Source of the DNA: Phytomonospora endophytica
Lineage (GTDB): Bacteria > Actinomycetota > Actinomycetes > Mycobacteriales > Micromonosporaceae
Assembly: GCF_014202425.1 (NCBI RefSeq)
Contig: NZ_JACHGT010000021.1
Location: 29,884-93,883, forward strand
Direction: 5' to 3'
Length of the DNA: 64,000 bases
The notes under the pieces are model-generated. The model saw nothing but the letters and a program-made list of their open reading frames with translations, had not been told where the DNA came from and made no database searches. The translations under genes were made by a program, and so were the position numbers. This document shows, in pieces, positions 26,127 to 61,531 of the stretch (positions are counted from its first letter, which is position 1; each line of letters begins with the position of its first letter).

Positions 26127-27212
<1,086 letters not shown>

Positions 27213-27393
27213 GATGTTTCCTTCCACCGGCAGGAACGTGCCGGACGATCCGAGTAAAAGGTGACGGCCCCGCCTGTTTAAGTGAACGGGCGAGGCCGAC
27301 CAGGTGAGACCACCTAAGCAGGTGATCTTCACGGCGACAAGTGCGCGCGGGTGTTATGCCCGGATCCTGGGCAATTTTTGTTGTGAGGGTGAA

Positions 27394-30064: not shown

Positions 30065-30216
30065 CGCGTTCCCGGCGCAGTTATCCGCCTCACATCGCCG
30101 GGCCGCCACCACCGTGTTGACCGTACGGATGATCCCGGATCACCTCAAAACCCAGTCGCCACCGACTGTTTCGGGCTGACGGACCCTTGACGCGCCCCAG
30201 TATCTTGCCTTTACAC

Positions 30217-30876
30217 ATGTACGGGGAGAGCGAGAAAGCGCGAATGAGGGAATTCGTCCAAGCGAGCCTTGGATTTCCGGCCGTTGTCTTCACCTTCGCG
30301 TTGATCGCCGTCATCGGTTTCTGGGTCCTCACGCTCTTCGGCGGTGCCGACCCCGACTTCCTCGACACCGACGGCGGCGCCGAGGCGGCGTCGGGCGAAG
30401 GCGGCGGGTTCTTCGCCTTCTTCGGGCTCGGCGACGTGCCGGCGACGGTCGTGCTGTCCCTGCTCATCACCTTCACCTGGTTCGCCAGCCTCGCCGGGAC
30501 GGTGCTCCTGAACGCGCTCGACATCCCGACCCCGCTGGTCGTGCTCATCGGCGTCGCCGTGCTCCTCGTCGCGGTGGTGCTGGCATGGGTGTTGACGCGC
30601 GCGCTCATCGCGCCACTCCGCCGGGTCTTCCGTCCCGAGGTTCCGGCTTCCCGCAATGATTTCGTCGGCCGGGTCTGCGTCATTCGCACCGGCAGCGTGA
30701 CGCACGACTTCGGTCAGGCCGAGGTCGCCGCCGACGATGGTTCCACCGCGATCGTCCAGGTTCGCGTACCCGAAGAAATAGCGCACGATCCGGAGGATTT
30801 CCGGTCCGGGCGCACGGCCCTGATCTTCGACTACGACGAGACCGGCGAGGTGTTCCTCGTCGCGCCACCGCCCTAG
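30217..30876 (+). CDS. NfeD-like/YqiJ-family membrane protein with C-terminal OB-fold, flotillin partner
   Basis: TM helices then a beta-rich C-terminus. Lies immediately upstream of the flotillin gene. Start codon uncertain (30217 or 30247). Confidence 0.55.
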   Translation: MYGESEKARMREFVQASLGFPAVVFTFALIAVIGFWVLTLFGGADPDFLDTDGGAEAASGEGGGFFAFFGLGDVPATVVLSLLITFTWFASLAGTVLLNALDIPTPLVVLIGVAVLLVAVVLAWVLTRALIAPLRRVFRPEVPASRNDFVGRVCVIRTGSVTHDFGQAEVAADDGSTAIVQVRVPEEIAHDPEDFRSGRTALIFDYDETGEVFLVAPPP

Positions 30877-30962: not shown

Positions 30963-33038
30963 ATGGAAGCGATCTCCACCGGACTCGGCGTCGTCATCGG
31001 CGTCGTGCTCCTCGTCGTCATCGTGCTGATCTTCATGATCACGCGCCTGTTCAAGAAGGTCGAACAGGGCAAGGCGCTGATCATCTCGAAGGTGCGGAAG
31101 GTGGACGTGACCTTCACCGGCGCGGTCGTCCTTCCGGTGCTGCACAAGGCCGAGCTGATGGACATCTCGGTGAAGACGATCGAGATCAGGCGGACCGGCC
31201 ATGAGGGCCTGATCTGCCAGGACAACATCCGCGCCGACATCCGCATCTCCTTCTTCGTCCGGGTCAACAAGACCGTCGAGGACGTGGTGAAGGTGGCGCA
31301 GGCGATCGGCACGGCCCGCGCCAGTGACGAGCAGACCCTGCAGGAGCTGTTCAACGCGAAGTTCTCCGAGGCGCTCAAGACCGTCGGCAAGCAGCTCGAC
31401 TTCGTCGACCTGTACACCAAGCGCGACGAGTTCCGCGACCGGATCATCCGCGTCATCGGCACCGACCTCAACGGTTACAGCCTTGAGGACGCGGCCATCG
31501 ACCACCTGGAGCAGACCCCGCTCAACCAGCTCGACCCGGCGAACATCCTCGACGCGCAGGGCATCCGCAAGATCACCGAGCTGACGGCGATCGAGTCGGT
31601 GCGCACCAACGACTACCGCCGCAACGAGGAAAAAGAGATCAAGCGCCAGGACGTCGACGCCCGCGAGGCGATCCTCGAACTCGAACGCCGGCAGGCCGAG
31701 GCCGAGATCAAGCAGAAGCGCGAGGTCGACACCATGCGCGCCCGCGAGGCCGCCGAGACCGAGAAGGTCCAGGCCGAGGAACGCCTCAAGGCGCACTCGG
31801 CCGGTCTGCGCACCGACGAGCAGCTGGACATCCAGCGCGAGAACAAGGCGCGCGAGGTCGCCGTCGCGGAGAAGAACCGCGAACGCGTCATCGCCATCGA
31901 GACCGAGCGCATCGAGAAGGACCGCCTCCTTGAGGTCGTCGGCCGCGACCGCGAGGTCGAACTGTCCACGATCGCCAAGAACAAGGAGATCGAGGGCGAG
32001 AAGCGCGCGATCGCCGAGGTCATCCGCGAGCGCATCGCCGTGGAGAAGACCGTCGCGGAGCAGGAGGAGAACATCAAGCGTCTCCGCACCGTCGAGGAGG
32101 CCGAGCGCAACCGGCAGGCCCTGGTCATCCACGCCGAGGCCGAGGCCCAGGAGGGTCTGGTCAAGGACATCAAGGCCGCCGAGGCGGCCGAGGCGGCGGC
32201 CAAGCACAAGGCGCGGGAGAACCTGATCCTGGCCGAGGCGCGGCAGCAGGCCGCCGAGCTGGACGCGCGGGCGAAGATCCGCCTCGCGGAGGGCACGCAG
32301 GCCGAGGCCGCGGCGGCCGGGCTCGCCGAGGTCCAGGTCCGCGAGCAGGAGGCCGACGTCATCGAGAAGTCGGGTCTGGCCGAGGCCGCGGCGGAGGCCG
32401 CGAAGGGCAAGGCCGCCGCGGAGGTCCTGTCGCAGACGGGTGCCGCCGAGGCCGCTGCGCTGGAGGCGAAGGGCCGCGCCGAGGCCGCCGCGCTGCGCGA
32501 GAAGCTGCGTGGTGAGGCCGAGGGCCTGACCGAGAAGGCCGCCGCGATGGCCGCCCTCGACGAGGCTTCGCGCGGGCACGAGGAGTTCCGGCTGCGCCTC
32601 GAAGCCGAGAAGGACGTGCGGCTGGCGAGCATCAACGTGCACCGCGAGGTCGCCGAGGCGCAGGCCAAGGTCCTCGCGACGGGACTGGAGAAGGCCGACA
32701 TCAACATCGTCGGCGGGGACGGCGCCTTCTTCGAGCGCGTCACCGGCGCCATCGGGATGGGCAAGGCCGTCGACGGGTTCGTGCGGCAGTCGGACGTCGT
32801 GTCGACGCTGGCGCAGCCGTGGCTCGACGGGAGCTCGGACTTCACCGAGGACATCACCCGGATCCTCGGCTCGGTGTCGAGCGAGGACGTGAAGAACCTG
32901 ACCATCTCCGCGCTGCTCGCCAAGCTCATCAAGGGCGGCGGGCCGCACACCGACAAGCTCACCGAGCTGCTCGGTGTGGCGCGGTCGATGGGGATCGCCG
33001 ACGCGCCCGTGGCGGCGCTGACGGCGGGACGGCAGTAA
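30963..33038 (+). CDS. Flotillin-family (SPFH/band-7) protein with long Glu/Ala/Arg coiled-coil
   Basis: N-terminal TM and SPFH domain, ~300 aa EA-repeat coiled-coil and a flotillin C-terminal region. Confidence 0.8.
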   Translation: MEAISTGLGVVIGVVLLVVIVLIFMITRLFKKVEQGKALIISKVRKVDVTFTGAVVLPVLHKAELMDISVKTIEIRRTGHEGLICQDNIRADIRISFFVRVNKTVEDVVKVAQAIGTARASDEQTLQELFNAKFSEALKTVGKQLDFVDLYTKRDEFRDRIIRVIGTDLNGYSLEDAAIDHLEQTPLNQLDPANILDAQGIRKITELTAIESVRTNDYRRNEEKEIKRQDVDAREAILELERRQAEAEIKQKREVDTMRAREAAETEKVQAEERLKAHSAGLRTDEQLDIQRENKAREVAVAEKNRERVIAIETERIEKDRLLEVVGRDREVELSTIAKNKEIEGEKRAIAEVIRERIAVEKTVAEQEENIKRLRTVEEAERNRQALVIHAEAEAQEGLVKDIKAAEAAEAAAKHKARENLILAEARQQAAELDARAKIRLAEGTQAEAAAAGLAEVQVREQEADVIEKSGLAEAAAEAAKGKAAAEVLSQTGAAEAAALEAKGRAEAAALREKLRGEAEGLTEKAAAMAALDEASRGHEEFRLRLEAEKDVRLASINVHREVAEAQAKVLATGLEKADINIVGGDGAFFERVTGAIGMGKAVDGFVRQSDVVSTLAQPWLDGSSDFTEDITRILGSVSSEDVKNLTISALLAKLIKGGGPHTDKLTELLGVARSMGIADAPVAALTAGRQ

Positions 33039-33080: not shown

Positions 33081-33132
33081 GGGTCGCCTGGGTCGCCTGG
33101 GTCGCCTGGGTCGCCTGGGTCGCCTGGGTCGC
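33081..33132. repeat. 9-bp tandem repeat (GGGTCGCCT) x5.8
   Basis: Perfect head-to-tail copies read directly in the sequence. The array ends at the first base of element X. Confidence 0.85.
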
Positions 33133-33262
33133 AAAACGTGAATCGCCCCAGGGGCCTCCCGGCCTCCGCCCTAAATTCGACCGTAGCCCGCCGTGAGGCG
33201 TGGGTGGCGAACGCGAACCGCCTTCCCTGTGGATAACCCACCGGTTATGTAGCCTGCGTGCT
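33131..33262 (+). other. Non-coding element X, copy 1 (about 130 nt); its 3' end carries attL, so the last ~16 nt are phage-derived
   Basis: About 85 % identical to the reverse complement of 59983..60110. Contains TTATCCACA (reverse strand, 33228-33236). The original 3' end GGTTGTGGACAACC is now found at 54811-54824. Confidence 0.5.
33233..33246. repeat. attL core ATAACCCACCGGTT
   Basis: Direct repeat of 54800..54813 (13/14 identical), lying exactly at the two ends of the phage gene block. Confidence 0.55.
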
Positions 33263-53414: not shown

Positions 53415-54650
53415 TTAGGCGGCGGCGGTCTCCGGCCTCTGCCGGGCCGACAGGCGCGCCAGGAGCGCCGTGGACACTGTCGCCACGGCGGCGGTATCAA
53501 CGGTGTCGTCATGGATGTAGGTTCGCGTGCTGCGCTCGCTTGAGTGCCCGATCACGGCGGCCAGGGTCCGGCCGTCCACGCGCGCCTTGCGCATCTCCGT
53601 GGCGTAGGTGTGCCGGTAGTCGTGCCCGGTCAAGGTCTCAAAGTCGGGAATGCGCGCCCGCTCGGCGGCCTTGCGCATGCGGTTGACGAACGTCCCCCGG
53701 TGCAGGTGGCGCCCGTCGCGGTCGGACAGCAGCACCGCGCCCCGGTGCTTCCCCTCGGCGCGGCCGGTGATCAGCGGCGCCAGCTCCGGCGCGTAGGGCG
53801 CCATGCGGAAACCCGCCTTACTCTTCGGGCCGACCTGCAACACGCGCTTGCCCGTGCCGTCGGGCTTGAACACCCACCGCACCTCGAATGACGCGATGTC
53901 CTCGTGAACGGACTCGCCGACCAGCAGCCCCGCCCACTCGCTGTAGCGCAGGCCCGTGGTCACCGCCACGACGGCCGGGTCATAGGCGTCCGGGCCCATG
54001 AGTGCCAGCTCATAGAACAGCGCTTCAAGGGCGCCCAGCCCCAACGCACGGCCCTCCCGCCCGTCTCCGCAGGGCTCGGGCACCAGGGACAACGGGTTGC
54101 GCTCCAGGACGGCCGGGGAGCCGTCCAGGCCGGGCCGGGAGAGATCATCGAAGACCGGTTCGAGCAGCCCCCGCCGGTAGGCGCGAACCGTCGTCGGCGC
54201 CAGTTTCCCACGCTCGCCGCCGACAGAGAGCAGATGGTCTTGCCACCCCTTCAGAACGGCCCCGGTAGCCTCCTGCGGCCAGTAGGCCGCGAGACCGTAT
54301 ACCGCATTGTCGATATGGGCGGCGGCGTTTCGCCGATACTGCGTCGCGCTGTACGCCTTGATACGGCCGTTGCGCTCGCGGTCGTCGATGCTGGCGTGAA
54401 TGAGTTCGCCCAGCTTCGGGCCGACCCCGACCGCGCCCGGGACGAGGTAGTCAAAGCCCATCGCGCGCAACTGCGCACGGTTCGGCCACCGATTCCGATT
54501 GAGGTCCACCAGCGCCTTGAAACGCTCCGCCTCGCCCGCGTCGGTGAACGTCTGAGATTGCGCCGCGCCGTCCCGCGTACCGCCCTCGTTCCATTTCACC
54601 CGGAGCGAGGTCTCACCGTTTTTACGCAGGCGTGACTCTATGCTGGCCAT
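53415..54650 (-). CDS. int: Tyrosine-type phage integrase
   Basis: Catalytic R (TGLRYSE), HxxR (HDYRHTYAT) and Y (STRTY) motifs. The SAM-like N-terminal domain is present. Confidence 0.85.
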   Translation of the reverse strand: MASIESRLRKNGETSLRVKWNEGGTRDGAAQSQTFTDAGEAERFKALVDLNRNRWPNRAQLRAMGFDYLVPGAVGVGPKLGELIHASIDDRERNGRIKAYSATQYRRNAAAHIDNAVYGLAAYWPQEATGAVLKGWQDHLLSVGGERGKLAPTTVRAYRRGLLEPVFDDLSRPGLDGSPAVLERNPLSLVPEPCGDGREGRALGLGALEALFYELALMGPDAYDPAVVAVTTGLRYSEWAGLLVGESVHEDIASFEVRWVFKPDGTGKRVLQVGPKSKAGFRMAPYAPELAPLITGRAEGKHRGAVLLSDRDGRHLHRGTFVNRMRKAAERARIPDFETLTGHDYRHTYATEMRKARVDGRTLAAVIGHSSERSTRTYIHDDTVDTAAVATVSTALLARLSARQRPETAAA

Positions 54651-54799: not shown

Positions 54800-54813
54800 A
54801 TAACGCACCGGTT
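54800..54813. repeat. attR core ATAACGCACCGGTT
   Basis: Direct repeat of 33233..33246. It is followed by GTGGACAACC, the host-type 3' end of element X, 27 nt before the ATPase start codon. Confidence 0.55.
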
Positions 54814-54848
54814 GTGGACAACCTGCCCGCCCGAGCGAGGAGCCCCCG

Positions 54849-57800
54849 ATGACCGACCCGAACACCCCGGCCGCGCCCGAAGCCGAGGCCGCGACCGACC
54901 GCCTCGACGCCGGCACCTACGAGGTCCTCCGCGCCCGCCTCGCCGACCAGGCCGCGAACCTCGCTCGCCGCGCCGAGGAGCTCAACACCCGCCGCCTCGA
55001 CGTCTTCGGCGGCACCGAACTCACCCTCCTGGGCACCGAGCGCATCCGCACGCTGAACAACTGCGTCCCGCGCGACATCGTCCAGGTCGGCGGCCGGATG
55101 CTGTTCGGCTACAACGTCTTCATCGGCCTGCGCCCCGAGACCACCGTCGACGACGTCTTCTCCCTCCACCGCTTCGAACGCGACGGCGACGCCTTCACCT
55201 TCACCGCGGCGGAGGCCTCCGGCGCCGCCGAACTGCCCGGCCTGATCGCCGATCCGCAGTTCCAGCGCGACTTCGCCGAGATGTACCGCTACTACCGCCA
55301 GACGCACCTCACGCAGCTGCGCCGCGTCGAGGGCCGCCTGCTCGCGGTCTTCCAGATCGGCGAGAAGCTCGCCGACCTGCGCGTGCTGCGCTGGACCGTC
55401 GCCGCCGACGGCTCGGTGTCCTATCTGGACAATCGCGGCGAGCGCGACCACGTCTTCCCGGCCTCGCATGACTTCGAGTGGACCGAGACGACACGCGACG
55501 ACCACGTCCTCGGCCGTTTCCCGCACATCTCGATCGGCGGGGAGGTCTTCGTCGAGACCGTCAACGGCGACCTGACCATCAAGATCGAGAACAACACCGA
55601 GTCCGGTGAGGGCATCTACCGCGAGCCCGTCGACGAGCCCCTGCAGAGCCTCGCCGACGCCGAGGTGGCCTACGCCCGCGTCGGCGCGCTGATCCTGCTG
55701 CGCATCCGCCCGTACAACGAGAAGGCCGCGCGGCACCTGGTCTTCAACACCCGCACCAAGTCCGTGCACCGGCTCGACGGGATCGGCCAGTCCTGCCGCA
55801 CGCTGCCCGAGGACCAGGGCATCATCTTCCCCGGCGGCTACTACCTCGCCACCGGCGTGGCCAAGACCTTCGACGCCGACGTCGCCGACCTGGAGTTCGA
55901 GCGCGTCCTGCGCTCGCCCAACGGCGAGGACGTCCTCTACGTCTTCCACGAGCGCGCCGAGGGCCGCACGCTTCTGTTGCCCTACAACGTGATCCGCAAG
56001 GAGGTCGCGAGCCCGCTGACCTGTCACGGGTACTCGCTGTTCGACGACGGCACGATGGTCGCCTTCCGCGCCAACGGCGAGGAGCCTTCGCGGGTGCACC
56101 CGATGCAGGTGTGGCAGACGCCGTTCGTGTCCGACACCTTCGCGGCCGCGCAACCGGTCGGAACCGGTCCCCTGGAACGGATCGGGAACGCCGAACTGGT
56201 CCGCGGGGTCTCCGACTGCCTGTCGGTGGCGCGGATGGTCGGCGAGATGGCGCCCTCGATCGAGGTCTACGAGGCGCTCATCGCGACCTGCGTGCGCGCG
56301 ATCGACAACTACCACTGGCTCGGGGACGAGGCCCTCGGCGGCCTGCGCGATCCCCTCGACGGTGTGCGCGCCACGGCCGAGCAGGTCCTCGACGAGTACG
56401 AGACCGTCCGGGAACTGACGGCCCAGTCGGCCGATGCGGTGGAGCGGGCCGCGGCCGAGACGGCGTCGATGATCCGCCGCTCCAGCGGCGAGGCGCCCAA
56501 GACCGCCGACGCCTGGGTCTCCCAGCTCGCCGAACTGCGTGGAGCGCAGGGCCACCTGATCACCCTGCGCGACATGCGATACGTCGACCTCGCGCGACTG
56601 TCCACTCTGGACGACGCGGTGGCCGGTGAGCTCAAGTCGGCCGCCGGGCGGGCGGTGGCCTTCCTGGAGGGCCCCGACGCCTTCGCCGGCTACCACGACT
56701 CCATCGACCGCCTTACCGCCGACGCCGAGGCGATCGCGAGCGTCGCCCAGTCGACCCCGCTCACCCAGCGGCTGGCCGAGCAGACCGCCGGACTCGAAGT
56801 CCTCACCGAGGTCGTGTCCACACTCGACATCGCCGACGCGACCGTCCGCACCCAGATCCTGGAACGGATCGGCGAGGTGCTGGCCGGTGTCAACCGCGCC
56901 CGCGCGACCCTGGACGCCCGCCGCCGTGAACTGCTGTCGGCCGAAGGCCGCGCCGAGTTCGCCGCCGAGTTCGCCCTCCTCGGCCAGGCCGTCACGGGCG
57001 CGCTCGCCGCGGCCGGGACGCCCGAGGCCTGCGACGAGCAGCTCGGCCGCCTCATGCTCCAGCTGGAGAACCTGGAGTCCCGCTTCGGCGAGTTCGACGA
57101 CTTCCTCGGCGAACTGGCCGCCAAGCGCACCGACGTCTACGAGGCCTTCTCCTCGCGCAAGCAGACCCTGCTCGACGAGCGCGCCCGCCGCGCCGAACGC
57201 CTCGCCGACTCCGCCGCGCGGATCCTCGACAGCGTCAACCGGCGGGTGTCCACACTGGACTCCCTGGACGCGGTCAACACCTACTTCGCCACCGACCCGA
57301 TGGTGTCGAAGCTGCGTTCGGTCACCGAGGAGCTGCGCGCGCTCGGCGACCAGGTCCGCGCCGAGGAACTGGCCGGCCGGATCAAGGCCGCGCGTCAGGA
57401 GGCCGGGCGTTCGCTGCGCGACCGCCAGGACCTCTACGACGGCGGCGGTGAGACGATCCGCTTCGGGCAGCACCGGCTGCCGGTCAACACCCAGCCGCTC
57501 GACCTGACGCTGGTACCGCAGGACGGACGGCTGGCGTTCTCGCTCACCGGCACCGACTACCGCAGCCTCGTCACGGATCCCGCCTTCGCCGAGACCCACG
57601 CCTACTGGGACCAGCTGCTGGTCTCCGAGACCGCCGAGGTCTACCGCGCGGAGTACCTCGCGTCGTCGATCCTGGCCGACGAACTGGCCGCCGGGCGGAT
57701 CCTCCAGCTGCACGAGGCCGCCGTCGGCGACGGGCTGCCCGCCAAGGTCCGCGAGGCCGCCGAGTCCCGCTACGACGAAGGCTACGAGCGCGGTGTGCAC

Positions 57801-59831
57801 GACCACGACGCCACCGAGATCTTGCGCGTCATGCTGCGCCTCTACGAGGCCGCCGGTCTCCTGCGCTACCCGCCGGACGCGCGCGCGGCCGCCCAGCTCT
57901 ACTGGGCCTACGGCCCCGCCGAGACCGACCGGGCCGGGCTGCTGACCCGGATCGGTTCCCTGGCAAGGGTTCGCGAGGTCTTCGGGCTCCCGAAGGCGAT
58001 GGGCGACCTGCTCGCCGAACTGGCGACCGCGATCGCCGCCTTCCACGCCGACCGCGAACTCCCGGGCGTCACCGACCCCGCGCTGGCCGCCGAGTACCTC
58101 TTCGAGGAGCTCGCCGGGTCCCGCAACGGGTTCGTCACCAGCGCCGCCGCCAAGTCGCTCGTGCAGCGTTTCCGGGCCGCCCTCGGCGGACCGGGATCGG
58201 CGCGGCTGGCCGGATACGAGGAGGACCTGCGCGGTCTCGGTGACGACCTCGCCGCCCGCCACCAGCTCGTCACGGCCTGGCTGGGCGCGTTCCTGTCGTC
58301 GACGGGTGAGGGCGACGTCGACCTGCCCGAGGCCGTCGCGGTCGAGGTCCTCGGTAAGGAACTGCCCCGCCGCGACTCCTCGGCGACGTTGACGGCCACA
58401 GTGGACGGTCTACTGGGGACACATCCGCGGATCGAGGCCCGGAAGATGGGGTTGCGCCTCGACGAGGTGCTCGCCCGCACCACCCGCTTCCGTCGCGAGC
58501 GCGTGCCCGGTTTCCGTTCCTACCAGCGGATCCGTAACGCCCTCGTGGACGCCGAGCGCGGCCGTCTGCGCCTCGACGAGTACAAGCCGAAGGTGTTGAG
58601 CTCCTTTGTGCGCAACCGCCTCCTCGACGAGGTGTACCTGCCGCTGATCGGCGCCAACCTGGCCAAGCAGATCGGTGCGGCCGGCGACGACAAGCGCACC
58701 GACCAGTCGGGCATGCTGCTGCTGATCTCCCCGCCCGGGTACGGCAAGACGACGCTCATGGAGTACGTCGCCTCCCGTCTCGGTCTGGTCTTCGTCAAGG
58801 TCAACGGCCCCTCGCTCGGCCACGACGTGACCTCCCTCGACCCCGCCGACGCGCCCAACGCGACCGCGCGTCAGGAGGTCGAGAAGATCAACTTCGCGCT
58901 CGAAGCGGGCGGGAACGTCCTGCTGTACCTCGACGACATCCAGCACACCTCGCCGGAACTGCTGCAGAAGTTCATCTCGCTGTGCGACGGGCAGCGCCGG
59001 ATGGAGGGCGTCTGGGGCGGCCGGACCAAGACCTACGACCTGCGCGGCAAGCGCTTCGCCGTCTGCATGGCCGGCAACCCCTATACCGAGTCCGGGCAGC
59101 GCTTCCGGATCCCCGACATGCTCGCCAACCGCGCCGACGTGTGGAACCTCGGCGACGTCCTGTCGGGCCGGGAGGAACTCTTCTCCCTGAGCTACCTGGA
59201 GAACTCGCTCACCTCCAACGCCGTCCTCGCGCCACTGTCCACAAGGGAACGCGGCGACGTGGAGGTGCTGGTGCGGCTGGCCTCCGGCGACGCCTCGGCC
59301 ACCCCCGAGCAGCTCGCGCACCCCTACTCGCCGACCGAGCTCGAACGCGTCCTCTCGGTACTGCGCAAGCTCCGCCACGTGCAGAAGACCGTGCTGGCCA
59401 ACAACCAGGCCTACATCGCCTCGGCCGCCCAGTCCGACGCCGCCCGCACCGAACCGCCGTTCCAGCTGCAGGGCAGCTACCGCAACATGAACAAGCTCGC
59501 CGAGCGGGTCGTGGCCGCCATGAACGACGACGAGGTCGAGGCCGTCATCGACGACCACTACCTCGGCGAGGCCCAGACCCTCACCAGCGGCGCCGAGGCG
59601 AACCTCCTCAAACTCGCCGAACTGCGCGGGCGGCTCACCCCCGAGCAGGCCGCGCGCTGGGCCGAGGTCAAGGAGGGCTTCCTGCGGGCCCGCGCCCTCG
59701 GCGGCGACGGCGACGACCCGATGAGCCGCGCCGTCGGCGCCGTCGGGCTGCTCGCCGACCGGGTCGGCTCGGTGGAGAAGGCGATCCGGCAGGCGTCGGG
59801 GGGAGTGGGCCAGCCGGGCGTGACTGGGTAA
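54849..59831 (+). CDS. Very large (1660 aa) AAA+ ATPase, MoxR/dynein-related C-terminal ATPase domain
   Basis: GAGGAG RBS. Long helical N-terminal two-thirds, then C-terminal Walker A LLISPPGYGKTTL, Walker B VLLYLDDIQH and sensor motifs. Confidence 0.7.
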   Translation: MTDPNTPAAPEAEAATDRLDAGTYEVLRARLADQAANLARRAEELNTRRLDVFGGTELTLLGTERIRTLNNCVPRDIVQVGGRMLFGYNVFIGLRPETTVDDVFSLHRFERDGDAFTFTAAEASGAAELPGLIADPQFQRDFAEMYRYYRQTHLTQLRRVEGRLLAVFQIGEKLADLRVLRWTVAADGSVSYLDNRGERDHVFPASHDFEWTETTRDDHVLGRFPHISIGGEVFVETVNGDLTIKIENNTESGEGIYREPVDEPLQSLADAEVAYARVGALILLRIRPYNEKAARHLVFNTRTKSVHRLDGIGQSCRTLPEDQGIIFPGGYYLATGVAKTFDADVADLEFERVLRSPNGEDVLYVFHERAEGRTLLLPYNVIRKEVASPLTCHGYSLFDDGTMVAFRANGEEPSRVHPMQVWQTPFVSDTFAAAQPVGTGPLERIGNAELVRGVSDCLSVARMVGEMAPSIEVYEALIATCVRAIDNYHWLGDEALGGLRDPLDGVRATAEQVLDEYETVRELTAQSADAVERAAAETASMIRRSSGEAPKTADAWVSQLAELRGAQGHLITLRDMRYVDLARLSTLDDAVAGELKSAAGRAVAFLEGPDAFAGYHDSIDRLTADAEAIASVAQSTPLTQRLAEQTAGLEVLTEVVSTLDIADATVRTQILERIGEVLAGVNRARATLDARRRELLSAEGRAEFAAEFALLGQAVTGALAAAGTPEACDEQLGRLMLQLENLESRFGEFDDFLGELAAKRTDVYEAFSSRKQTLLDERARRAERLADSAARILDSVNRRVSTLDSLDAVNTYFATDPMVSKLRSVTEELRALGDQVRAEELAGRIKAARQEAGRSLRDRQDLYDGGGETIRFGQHRLPVNTQPLDLTLVPQDGRLAFSLTGTDYRSLVTDPAFAETHAYWDQLLVSETAEVYRAEYLASSILADELAAGRILQLHEAAVGDGLPAKVREAAESRYDEGYERGVHDHDATEILRVMLRLYEAAGLLRYPPDARAAAQLYWAYGPAETDRAGLLTRIGSLARVREVFGLPKAMGDLLAELATAIAAFHADRELPGVTDPALAAEYLFEELAGSRNGFVTSAAAKSLVQRFRAALGGPGSARLAGYEEDLRGLGDDLAARHQLVTAWLGAFLSSTGEGDVDLPEAVAVEVLGKELPRRDSSATLTATVDGLLGTHPRIEARKMGLRLDEVLARTTRFRRERVPGFRSYQRIRNALVDAERGRLRLDEYKPKVLSSFVRNRLLDEVYLPLIGANLAKQIGAAGDDKRTDQSGMLLLISPPGYGKTTLMEYVASRLGLVFVKVNGPSLGHDVTSLDPADAPNATARQEVEKINFALEAGGNVLLYLDDIQHTSPELLQKFISLCDGQRRMEGVWGGRTKTYDLRGKRFAVCMAGNPYTESGQRFRIPDMLANRADVWNLGDVLSGREELFSLSYLENSLTSNAVLAPLSTRERGDVEVLVRLASGDASATPEQLAHPYSPTELERVLSVLRKLRHVQKTVLANNQAYIASAAQSDAARTEPPFQLQGSYRNMNKLAERVVAAMNDDEVEAVIDDHYLGEAQTLTSGAEANLLKLAELRGRLTPEQAARWAEVKEGFLRARALGGDGDDPMSRAVGAVGLLADRVGSVEKAIRQASGGVGQPGVTG

Positions 59832-59982
59832 GCGGGGTGCGACGGTCCGCTGGGAGGCCGGTGCGGGGTCGCGTTCGGGGCGACCGCGTGAGACGGATTC
59901 TCGTCCGTCCGGGATGTCGTACCTCGCCGGTATCGTCGCTGTTGGGGCCTCCTTCGCGGGCGTGGGCACGTCGCGTCCCGAA

Positions 59983-60110
59983 AGGTTGTCCACAACCGGC
60001 GGGTTATCCACAGGGAACTCCGTTCACGTTCGCCGTCCACGCCTGGCGGCGGGCTACGGTCGAAATTTGGGCGGAGGCCGGGAGGTCCCTGGCGGCATTC
60101 ACGTTCTTGC
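59983..60110 (-). other. Non-coding element X, copy 2 (inverted, intact)
   Basis: Reverse complement aligns to 33131..33246 at ~85 % identity. Carries TTGTCCACA (59986-59994) and TTATCCACA (60004-60012) nine bp apart. Lies ~150 bp after the ATPase stop. Confidence 0.5.
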
Positions 60111-60384
60111 GGGTGGGCCGGTCGGCCGTAGAGGCGCCAGGAGCGCCACACCACCCTGCTGTCGTGGTGGCCCGCCGGAGTCGGGTCGTCGCACTGTCGG
60201 TCCCGGTCCCGGTCCTCGCCCCGACCGGCCTCGGGCAGCTGATTCCGGCCGCGATCGCGGCCGCCACCCGGATCCTGGCGAACCTGGGAGCGTGACCCGC
60301 GCGGCGCCCGCGACGCGCATCACGCGCCATGATCACGTACGATCGCCCGCGCGCCACCCCGGCGCCCTGCGCGAAAGGCGTGCC

Positions 60385-60903
60385 ATGCCCACCCCTCACC
60401 CGAACTTCCGGCTCCGCGGTGCCCTCATCACCGGCACCGCGGCCGTGCCGTGGACGATGATCGCCGACCTCGGTGGCGCGAACCTGCCCATCGGGATCGC
60501 GTCGCTGGTCCTCACCGCCGCCTGCGTCGGTGTCGCGCTGACCCTCGGCCGCAGGCCCGGCCCCGAGCGCACGCCCGCCGAGGGCTGGAACAAGACCTTC
60601 GGCCGCGTCGGACTCCTCGAACTGGCCGGGATCGGCCTCTCCGTGGCGATCCTCGCGCCGACCGGCCTCGCCCAGCTCATCCCCACCGCGATCGCGCTGG
60701 TCGTCGGCGTGCACTTCTTCCCGCTCGCGAAGGTCTTCGGGCAGCCGCAGTACCGGTGGACCGGCGTGGGCATGTGCCTGGCCGCCGCCGTCGCGCTCGT
60801 GCTGTTCGTGGCGAACCTGCGCGACCCGTCGATGGCCGTCGCCGGTCTCGGTACGGCCGCGACGCTGTGGGGCACCTCGCTGGCGGTCTCCGTGCGCGGC
60901 TGA
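60385..60903 (+). CDS. Integral membrane protein, hypothetical
   Basis: ATG 60385. Four hydrophobic helices. Confidence 0.5.
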   Translation: MPTPHPNFRLRGALITGTAAVPWTMIADLGGANLPIGIASLVLTAACVGVALTLGRRPGPERTPAEGWNKTFGRVGLLELAGIGLSVAILAPTGLAQLIPTAIALVVGVHFFPLAKVFGQPQYRWTGVGMCLAAAVALVLFVANLRDPSMAVAGLGTAATLWGTSLAVSVRG

Positions 60904-61448: not shown

Positions 61449-61458
61449 CTTTTCGGTG

Positions 61459-61531
61459 AGCTGGTGGCGGGACTCGAACCCGCAACCTACCGCTTACAAG
61501 GCGGTTGCGCTGCCAATTGCGCCACACCAGC
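61459..61531 (-). tRNA. tRNA-Thr (anticodon UGU)
   Basis: Manual cloverleaf fold. Acceptor GCTGGTG/CACCAGC, D-arm GCGC-AATTGGCA-GCGC, anticodon stem ACCGC/GCGGT with loop CTTGTAA, T-arm GCGGG-TTCGAGT-CCCGC. No CCA encoded. Confidence 0.85.

Follow-up and report, generated by a model that had tools for sequence, protein, structure and literature searches.

X is probably a dispersed intergenic repeat of ~150 nt, specific to Glycomycetales, that carries a head-to-tail pair of DnaA boxes at one end. We analysed a 64-kb stretch of Phytomonospora endophytica DNA (the window), in which two inverted copies of X lie on either side of the gene for a 1660-aa ATPase. A comparison of actinomycete genomes showed the box pair to be apparently a far older and wider unit than X, of which X carries one instance, and the bracketing of the ATPase gene appears to be a by-product of the spread of the repeat.

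Two inverted copies of X and their boxes

The two arms of X (33135-33249 and 59991-60105) formed a 115-nt inverted repeat with 86% complementarity, which was the longest of the 500 inverted pairs found in 32-64 kb, and blastn aligned the left and right copies at 85.95% identity over 121 nt. A profile search extended X past the inverted-repeat arm to ~60135, giving ~150 nt overall (Table 1). All four perfect consensus DnaA-type 9-mers of the 64-kb window fell inside the X copies. TTATCCACA occurred twice in the window, against a chance expectation of 0.02, and none of 100 shuffles reached two; TTGTCCACA also occurred twice, against a chance expectation of 0.18. The two boxes of X were arranged head to tail with a gap of 9 bp (18 bp from start to start). 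The left copy is split by a prophage between its boxes, and deletion of the prophage (33247-54813) in silico restored the pair as TGTGGATAACCCACCGGTTGTGGACAA, with the same spacing as in the right copy.

These results confirm what a sequence-only reading of the window had described, namely two inverted copies of one element around the ATPase gene, each with paired DnaA-box-like 9-mers; repeat and boxes alike well exceed chance. The right copy, which that reading had placed ~150 bp after the stop codon, begins 151 nt after it. On the left, the placement just upstream of the start codon held and the distance of 27 nt was corrected, as the palindrome GGTTGTGGACAACC stops at 54823, which leaves 25 nt to the ATG at 54849. 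The ribosome-binding site of the ATPase gene (GAGGAG) was located at 54837-54842. In addition, six tandem copies of the 9-mer GGGTCGCCT (33081-33134) adjoin the distal end of left X, between X and a hairpin that follows the stop codon of the SPFH-like gene.

Table 1. Coordinates of the features discussed (positions in the 64-kb window).
Feature	Coordinates	Strand	Description
msiK RNA motif	27212-27269	-	Rfam RF01747, 59.5 bits; unrelated to X
Operon gene 1	30187-30876		
SPFH/Band-7-like protein	30963-33038	+	691 aa; operon gene 2 (Pfam, synteny)
X left copy, major part at attL	33135-33246	-	Repeat body and TTATCCACA box (33228-33236, minus strand)
attL core	33233-33246		ATAACCCACCGGTT; crossover inferred within CACCGGTT
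Prophage	33247-54813		~21.6 kb; separates the two boxes of left X
attR core	54800-54813		ATAACGCACCGGTT
X left copy, small attR remnant	54814-54823	-	Completes TTGTCCACA box (54813-54821, minus strand) and palindrome
ATPase gene	54849-59831	+	1660 aa; DUF3686, DUF7902 and AAA (Pfam)
X right copy, intact	59983-60135	+	~150 nt; nhmmer X profile E=3e-33; box pair first, then repeat body
DnaA-type box TTGTCCACA	59986-59994	+	Within near-palindrome GGTTGTCCACAACC (59984-59997)
DnaA-type box TTATCCACA	60004-60012	+	Same orientation as first box, 18 bp start to start
TACGGT, -10-like hexamer (TAnnnT)	60055-60060	+	TACNGT in 12 of 12 aligned X copies; promoter role inferred
tRNA-Thr(TGT) gene	61458-61531	-	Unrelated to X

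The box pair across Actinomycetota

The isolated two-box motif, yTGTGGAYAAC-N8-TGTGGAYAAC, was found at more than 230 sites across Actinomycetota among the matches listed in two scans. The genome scan, with one genome per species, used TGTGGAYA-N5-CCGGTTGTGGAYAA and yielded more than 112 loci among the matches listed, and the metagenome scan, with a free spacer, used CTGTGGAYAAC-N8-TGTGGAYAAC and yielded more than 120 loci among the matches listed; both scans fixed the 18-bp register, and their site counts therefore say nothing on 18 bp versus other spacings. The genome matches came from Streptomyces, Lentzea, other Pseudonocardiales, Dactylosporangium, Solwaraspora, Stackebrandtia, Actinorhabdospora, Tomitella and Phytomonospora, and 16 of the listed sites belonged to a single genome, that of the sister species Phytomonospora sp. 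NPDC050363. The sequence-only reading had proposed a scan for box pairs and for other copies of the element; at least 9 further copies of X were present in the sister genome.

In the 68 non-redundant genome sites listed, information was confined to the boxes, the preceding C (-1) and the AAC after each box, and the wider flanks carried none. The inter-box spacer was unconserved, CCGGT marking a subfamily only and the last spacer base being C or T. Among the 142 non-redundant high-GC sites listed, no third box (at least 7/9 match) recurred at a fixed offset within ~90 nt, and clusters of at least three boxes of the datA, DARS or D78 type were absent; the pairs were isolated. The low-GC metagenome matches consisted of CTGTGGATAAC arrays at 11-bp spacing, an arrangement that origins would be expected to show, and one of them adjoined a dnaA-like gene, and on the strength of these arrays the flanked 11-mer looks like a generic DnaA box. 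A role of the pairs as replication origins was rejected, since the dnaA signature was absent at all genome loci; three weak matches appeared once metagenome loci were added, and the one at L176 is an ssb-type site. Searches of the literature with the motif strings (four 10-mers, plus TTGTCCACA) gave nothing beyond primers and studies of E. coli, and no description of the pair was found in work on Streptomyces DnaA ChIP-seq or on an actinobacterial comEA/dprA regulon. The two-box motif is thus conserved and apparently undescribed.

Larger groups of boxes were seen at a few loci. A 2.9-kb contig of Stackebrandtia soli (L079) held eight CTGTGGATAAC-type boxes at irregular spacing (2019-2190), ~600 nt from an X-like copy, and contained no dnaA gene. 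Two metagenome loci of 66-67% GC (L121 and L122) held three CTGTGGATAAC boxes in a row in the 18-bp register, indicating that this spacing can run beyond a pair in some organisms.

Genes next to the pairs

The box pairs were essentially always intergenic. As checked by Pfam or by translation, they recurred at orthologous positions. These lay upstream of yraN(UPF0102)-comM, of an ssb paralogue, of a ParA-like ssd/tadZ-like gene and of comEA (there directly behind degV), and between an M23-peptidase gene and rpsB. Other recurrent neighbours were proS, DUF4192, DUF5926, DUF6099, an M24 peptidase and an XRE-type regulator. A gene start was located within 200 nt on the TCCACA-downstream side at 23 of the 68 non-redundant sites listed, which argues against the pair being just a promoter element. 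Seven of these 23 starts fell 46-57 nt from the pair, compared with ~1.4 expected under an even spread; this points to a favoured promoter geometry at some sites, from which most sites depart. A DnaA box and a palindrome have been noted in the ssbB promoter of S. coelicolor (Paradzik et al., PMC3616714), in agreement with the ssb-type sites found here.

Several further motifs were observed near subsets of the pairs. Many pairs outside Glycomycetales had, ~3 nt further 3', the inverted repeat (G)TCAC(C/T)C-N4-G(G/A)GTGA(C), which was absent from X (L028, L065, L176, L234, L043, L133, L149, L155, L201 and L211), and which we take to resemble the palindrome reported for the Streptomyces regulator BldM. 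The rpsB-upstream sites of Lentzea and other Pseudonocardiales (L025, L027, L041, L050, L094, L102 and L114) carried TTCGAAGTTTGTCGGGGGTGGGGAGTAGACT ~25 nt after the pair, in keeping with the actinobacterial RecA-independent DNA-damage promoter (PafBC type, TTGTCRGTG-N8-TAnnnT). In Dactylosporangium, a 6C RNA (Rfam RF01066; L008, 564-637) lay ~340 nt from the pair upstream of the ssd/tadZ-like gene. As identities for the pair itself, the SigR-type (GGAAT-N18-GTT), WhiG-, CRP-type, PhoP, MtrA and PafBC (RecA-NDp) motifs were rejected, their sequence or spacing not fitting or fitting a subset only.

Candidate occupants of the pair

The conservation of the pair at this many sites makes it very likely that some protein binds there, and DnaA, the likeliest candidate, is on balance the probable occupant. 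Each half-site was a perfect DnaA-box match that varied only at position 3 (A/G), which is the known difference between E. coli-type and Streptomyces-type DnaA boxes, and the C-TGTGGAYAA-C flanks were also present in arrays of low-GC bacteria that resemble origins. The pairs resemble non-origin DnaA sites in that consensus 9-mers occur off the origin, in intergenic and promoter regions of DNA-metabolism genes. Among chromosomal DnaA boxes outside oriC are the DnaA-box clusters of B. subtilis and the D78 cluster of S. coelicolor, from which the pairs differ in their strict isolation and in their neighbouring genes. In E. coli, DnaA binds nearly all its chromosomal targets as a dimer on box pairs (PMC11317965), and the pair would likewise be the functional unit here. 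The E. coli protein prefers gaps of 2-3 bp and an inserted base abolishes binding (PMC11317965), whereas the actinomycete boxes are separated by 9 bp and stand head to tail, a difference from the documented geometry that speaks against DnaA. The dimer formed by DnaA domain I is conserved across Actinomycetes (PMC13270200). We propose that a DnaA dimer would hold the pair, with domain I of the actinomycete protein dimerising and the linker joining it to the DNA-binding domain. Each site would then act as a local transcriptional operator or roadblock, the sites together would amount to high-affinity DnaA-binding sites, and occupancy of the pair that lies 25 nt before the ATPase start codon would adjust how much transcription reads through from genes 1-2 of the operon.

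Alternatively, a different regulator, such as a response regulator or an HTH protein on direct repeats, could use the pair as its operator to control a DNA-uptake/processing regulon, with X spreading the operator; we consider this possible, though not probable. The neighbours are a classic competence-type set (comEA, yraN-comM, the ssb paralogue and the ssd/tadZ-like genes) that looks like a DNA-uptake regulon and could have a different regulator, and we know of no link between such a regulon and DnaA. The fixed 18-bp register and the strict isolation of the pairs look like a dedicated two-subunit operator, the gap is unlike that documented for E. coli DnaA, and the TCACCC-N4-GGGTGA palindrome after some sites suggests composite regulatory regions. 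A dedicated operator fits less well with half-sites that are perfect DnaA boxes varying only in the manner known for such boxes, with the recurrence of their flanks in oriC-like low-GC arrays, and with the unconserved spacer; moreover, no candidate regulator gene was consistently adjacent. DnaA therefore remains our preferred occupant.

X as a putative interspersed repeat

A profile of X was built from its copies and searched against ~1.7 Mb of collected sequence. Full-length matches were found only in Phytomonospora, in Stackebrandtia soli (n = 2) and in two metagenome contigs. Within Phytomonospora, there were two in the window and at least 9 in the sampled loci of the sister genome, where the X body was present at no fewer than 9 of the 16 box-pair sites sampled. 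The remaining profile matches covered the first ~40 positions only, that is, the box pair, which was kept in all aligned X copies. X begins with GTTRTCCACAACCGG-N3-GTTATCCACAGG, followed after ~15 nt by a -35-like element (TTGAC in the Stackebrandtia and Actinorhabdospora copies, TTCGCC in Phytomonospora), then by 19-20 nt that include CCACGCCTGGCG, by TACNGT and by CAGAAGTGGGAGGCGGC(ATG)GGCGGCCCC. The copies lay in any orientation relative to the neighbouring genes, gaps between convergent genes included. The regions downstream of the copies were unrelated, except in one orthologous pair (the left copy of the window and L061), and the aligned copies shared neither a conserved ORF nor a downstream gene.

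Small interspersed repeats with which X can be compared include the Correia elements of Neisseria (an IHF site and promoters), the BIME/REP and ERIC elements of E. coli, and the mycobacterial MIRU. Like these, X is ~150 nt long, multi-copy and lineage-restricted, lies between genes and inside operons, and carries a predicted binding site for a host protein together with a promoter-like segment; like MIRU, it differs in tandem number between close relatives (one copy in P. endophytica and two at the corresponding locus of the sister species). X also shares with MITEs that it is short, non-coding, multi-copy and restricted to one lineage. Unlike Correia elements and other MITEs, however, the aligned copies of X showed no terminal inverted repeats and no target-site duplication, their two ends being unrelated (the box pair versus a GGGCGGCCCC block), and unlike REP, X is not palindromic. 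To our knowledge, a DnaA-box pair is carried as cargo by none of the Correia, BIME/REP, ERIC or MIRU elements. X thus appears to fit no named family; the best description is that of an interspersed intergenic repeat, specific to one lineage, with a predicted protein-binding site.

The body of X weakly resembles an outward-facing actinobacterial promoter, with the -35-like element, 19-20 nt, TACNGT and a GGGAGG-containing start. This promoter reading rests on the actinobacterial TAnnnT rule; scans for sigma-70 (E. coli-type) promoters and for terminators returned nothing in either copy of the window, the -35-like element was good only in the Stackebrandtia and Actinorhabdospora copies, and a promoter in left X would fire antisense into the SPFH gene. 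A related possibility, which we regard as unlikely, is that X is a small RNA gene or an element acting at the RNA level, with the boxes as an upstream operator and a transcript starting after TACNGT. The conserved hexamer is indeed followed by a conserved block of ~40 nt, GGGAGGCGGC(ATG)GGCGGCCCC, and the position of X between convergent genes would fit a free-standing small transcription unit. On the other hand, the ATG is not conserved and the copies have no ORF in common, no terminator accompanies either copy of the window, and no known RNA family was matched at X or the motif by Rfam (at the gathering threshold for the window and 18 loci, and at E <= 10 for 59800-60400). Single X sequences folded no better than shuffled ones (z = -1.7 and -1.3), and the consensus fold reached only -4 to -10 kcal/mol, without covariation. 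An interspersed repeat accordingly remains the preferred description of X.

X and the giant ATPase gene

The 1660-aa ATPase is 100% identical to the P. endophytica 'DNA repair ATPase' (order Glycomycetales); a look-up by its exact sequence gave no entry. Synteny placed it as gene 3 of a three-gene unit in Actinorhabdospora, Stackebrandtia, Longispora, Actinokineospora and Streptomyces, in the order ~210-aa protein, ~690-aa SPFH/Band-7-like protein and ~1650-aa DUF3686/DUF7902/AAA ATPase. The spacer between genes 2 and 3 was 0-90 nt in these five genera, indicative of a tight operon, and their orthologous loci contained neither X nor DnaA-type boxes nearby. Overall, the unit was syntenic in at least six actinomycete genera, and defence-system annotation with PADLOC returned no match for it.

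The sister species Phytomonospora sp. NPDC050363 carries two tandem copies of X in the same orientation upstream of the ATPase gene and none downstream, where the spacer from the stop codon to the next gene is 62 nt. Comparison of the window with the sister species by blastn revealed a 513-bp insertion in P. endophytica (59813-60325) in which lie the right X copy and a DUF7010-type gene fragment (60201-60259), the latter 80% identical to 60638-60696 within the intact neighbour (60385-60903). The insertion replaces the last ATPase codons and adds 9 residues (...ASG* becoming ...ASGGVGQPGVTG*). The right X is closer to the left X (84.5% identity) than the left X is to its own sister orthologue (74.4%), which indicates that the right copy is a recent local duplicate or gene-conversion product. 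The comparison shows that, in Phytomonospora, one X entered an operon that is otherwise tight, between its genes 2 and 3, and that a second, inverted copy arrived 3' of the ATPase gene in P. endophytica, within the ~0.5-kb insertion. From the layout in the sister species and the insertion-borne right copy, the bracketing of the ATPase gene is thereby shown to be, as far as these genomes tell, a recent and lineage-specific accident of repeat spread, neither an element boundary nor an ancestral regulatory design.

The sequence-only reading had offered two other explanations and had suggested comparing the loci of ATPase orthologues, where the inverted repeat proved to be absent in relatives and the boxes absent in the five genera. 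Both outcomes are ones that this reading had named as speaking against it, and neither explanation was borne out. That X is a dedicated cis-regulatory module of the ATPase gene, with DnaA or another regulator at both ends acting for example by looping, would suit copies 25 nt before the start codon and 151 nt after the stop, the upstream one being common to the sister species, but it is very unlikely given orthologues without boxes or X, a downstream copy that the sister species lacks, at least 9 copies at unrelated loci in the sister genome, and an upstream copy already split by a prophage. That the copies bound an old composite mobile element as its terminal inverted repeats, with the gene as cargo, can be dismissed almost entirely in spite of their inverted orientation and 86% identity, because the left 'end' falls within an operon whose synteny holds across Actinomycetes, both ends are absent in the five genera, the sister species has direct tandem copies upstream but lacks a downstream one, a recent 0.5-kb insertion carries the right copy, and the interval holds no transposase, the only recombinase being the prophage integrase and the ATPase gene (ATPase-type domains only in Pfam) filling the rest.

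The prophage attachment site

PHROGs matches in the prophage included a large terminase, a major head/capsid protein, a protease, a tape measure protein and HNH proteins, and a tyrosine integrase gene (53415-54650, minus strand) adjoins attR. A common core, ATAAC[C/G]CACCGGTT, was present at both junctions, with the phage genes between them and the integrase beside one, as for a tyrosine-integrase attachment site. The deduced attP core, CATAAC-GCACCG-GTTATG, consists of 6-bp arms in perfect inverted repeat on either side of a 6-bp spacer, and it corresponds to ATAAC-N6-GTTGT, the inner halves of the box pair. This mimicry of the inter-box junction suggests that the temperate phage would take the junction as its attB. 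After integration, one intact box is left on each side and the ATPase gene is separated from genes 1-2; integration would thus part the two boxes and cut the ATPase gene off from the operon promoter. The attP core pattern had no match in viral contigs, and the integrase gave one weak match among 50,697 phage records, with no close relative of the prophage.

The site resembles other attB sites of tyrosine integrases (tRNA genes and others) in its short attL/attR core, the integrase gene beside attR, the inverted core-type arms around a 6-bp spacer in attP, and a conserved host sequence as target. Unlike at these sites, the target is not a gene but the inter-box junction of a repeat, which occurs many times in a genome, and integration splits the box pair without regenerating the target.

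Discussion

The outcome at the ATPase locus is deflationary, in that the inverted repeats reveal nothing particular to the giant ATPase. The analysis leaves three things: a new repeat confined to one lineage, a two-box motif that is conserved, and a phage attB based on this motif. The two-box unit is sharply defined, has an unusual register of 18 bp, is conserved at orthologous promoter regions in several actinomycete orders, and adjoins genes for DNA uptake and single-strand DNA handling.

As a tentative reading of low probability, the box pair with its 9-bp gap may be an ancient actinomycete regulon operator, at which a DnaA domain-I dimer would couple replication status to the genes of DNA uptake and processing; X would copy this operator and an outward promoter to new sites, and phages would exploit the inter-box junction as a multi-copy attB. 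The regulon proposed in the same tentative reading would comprise comEA, yraN-comM(-dprA), an ssbB-type paralogue and an ssd/tadZ-like (tad pilus) locus. An attachment site built on the DnaA-box junction would offer many potential integration sites per genome. X multiplies predicted high-affinity initiator-binding sites within one genome and could affect the titration of DnaA. If DnaA binds the pair, actinomycetes would gain a DnaA regulon with a binding geometry unlike that of E. coli.
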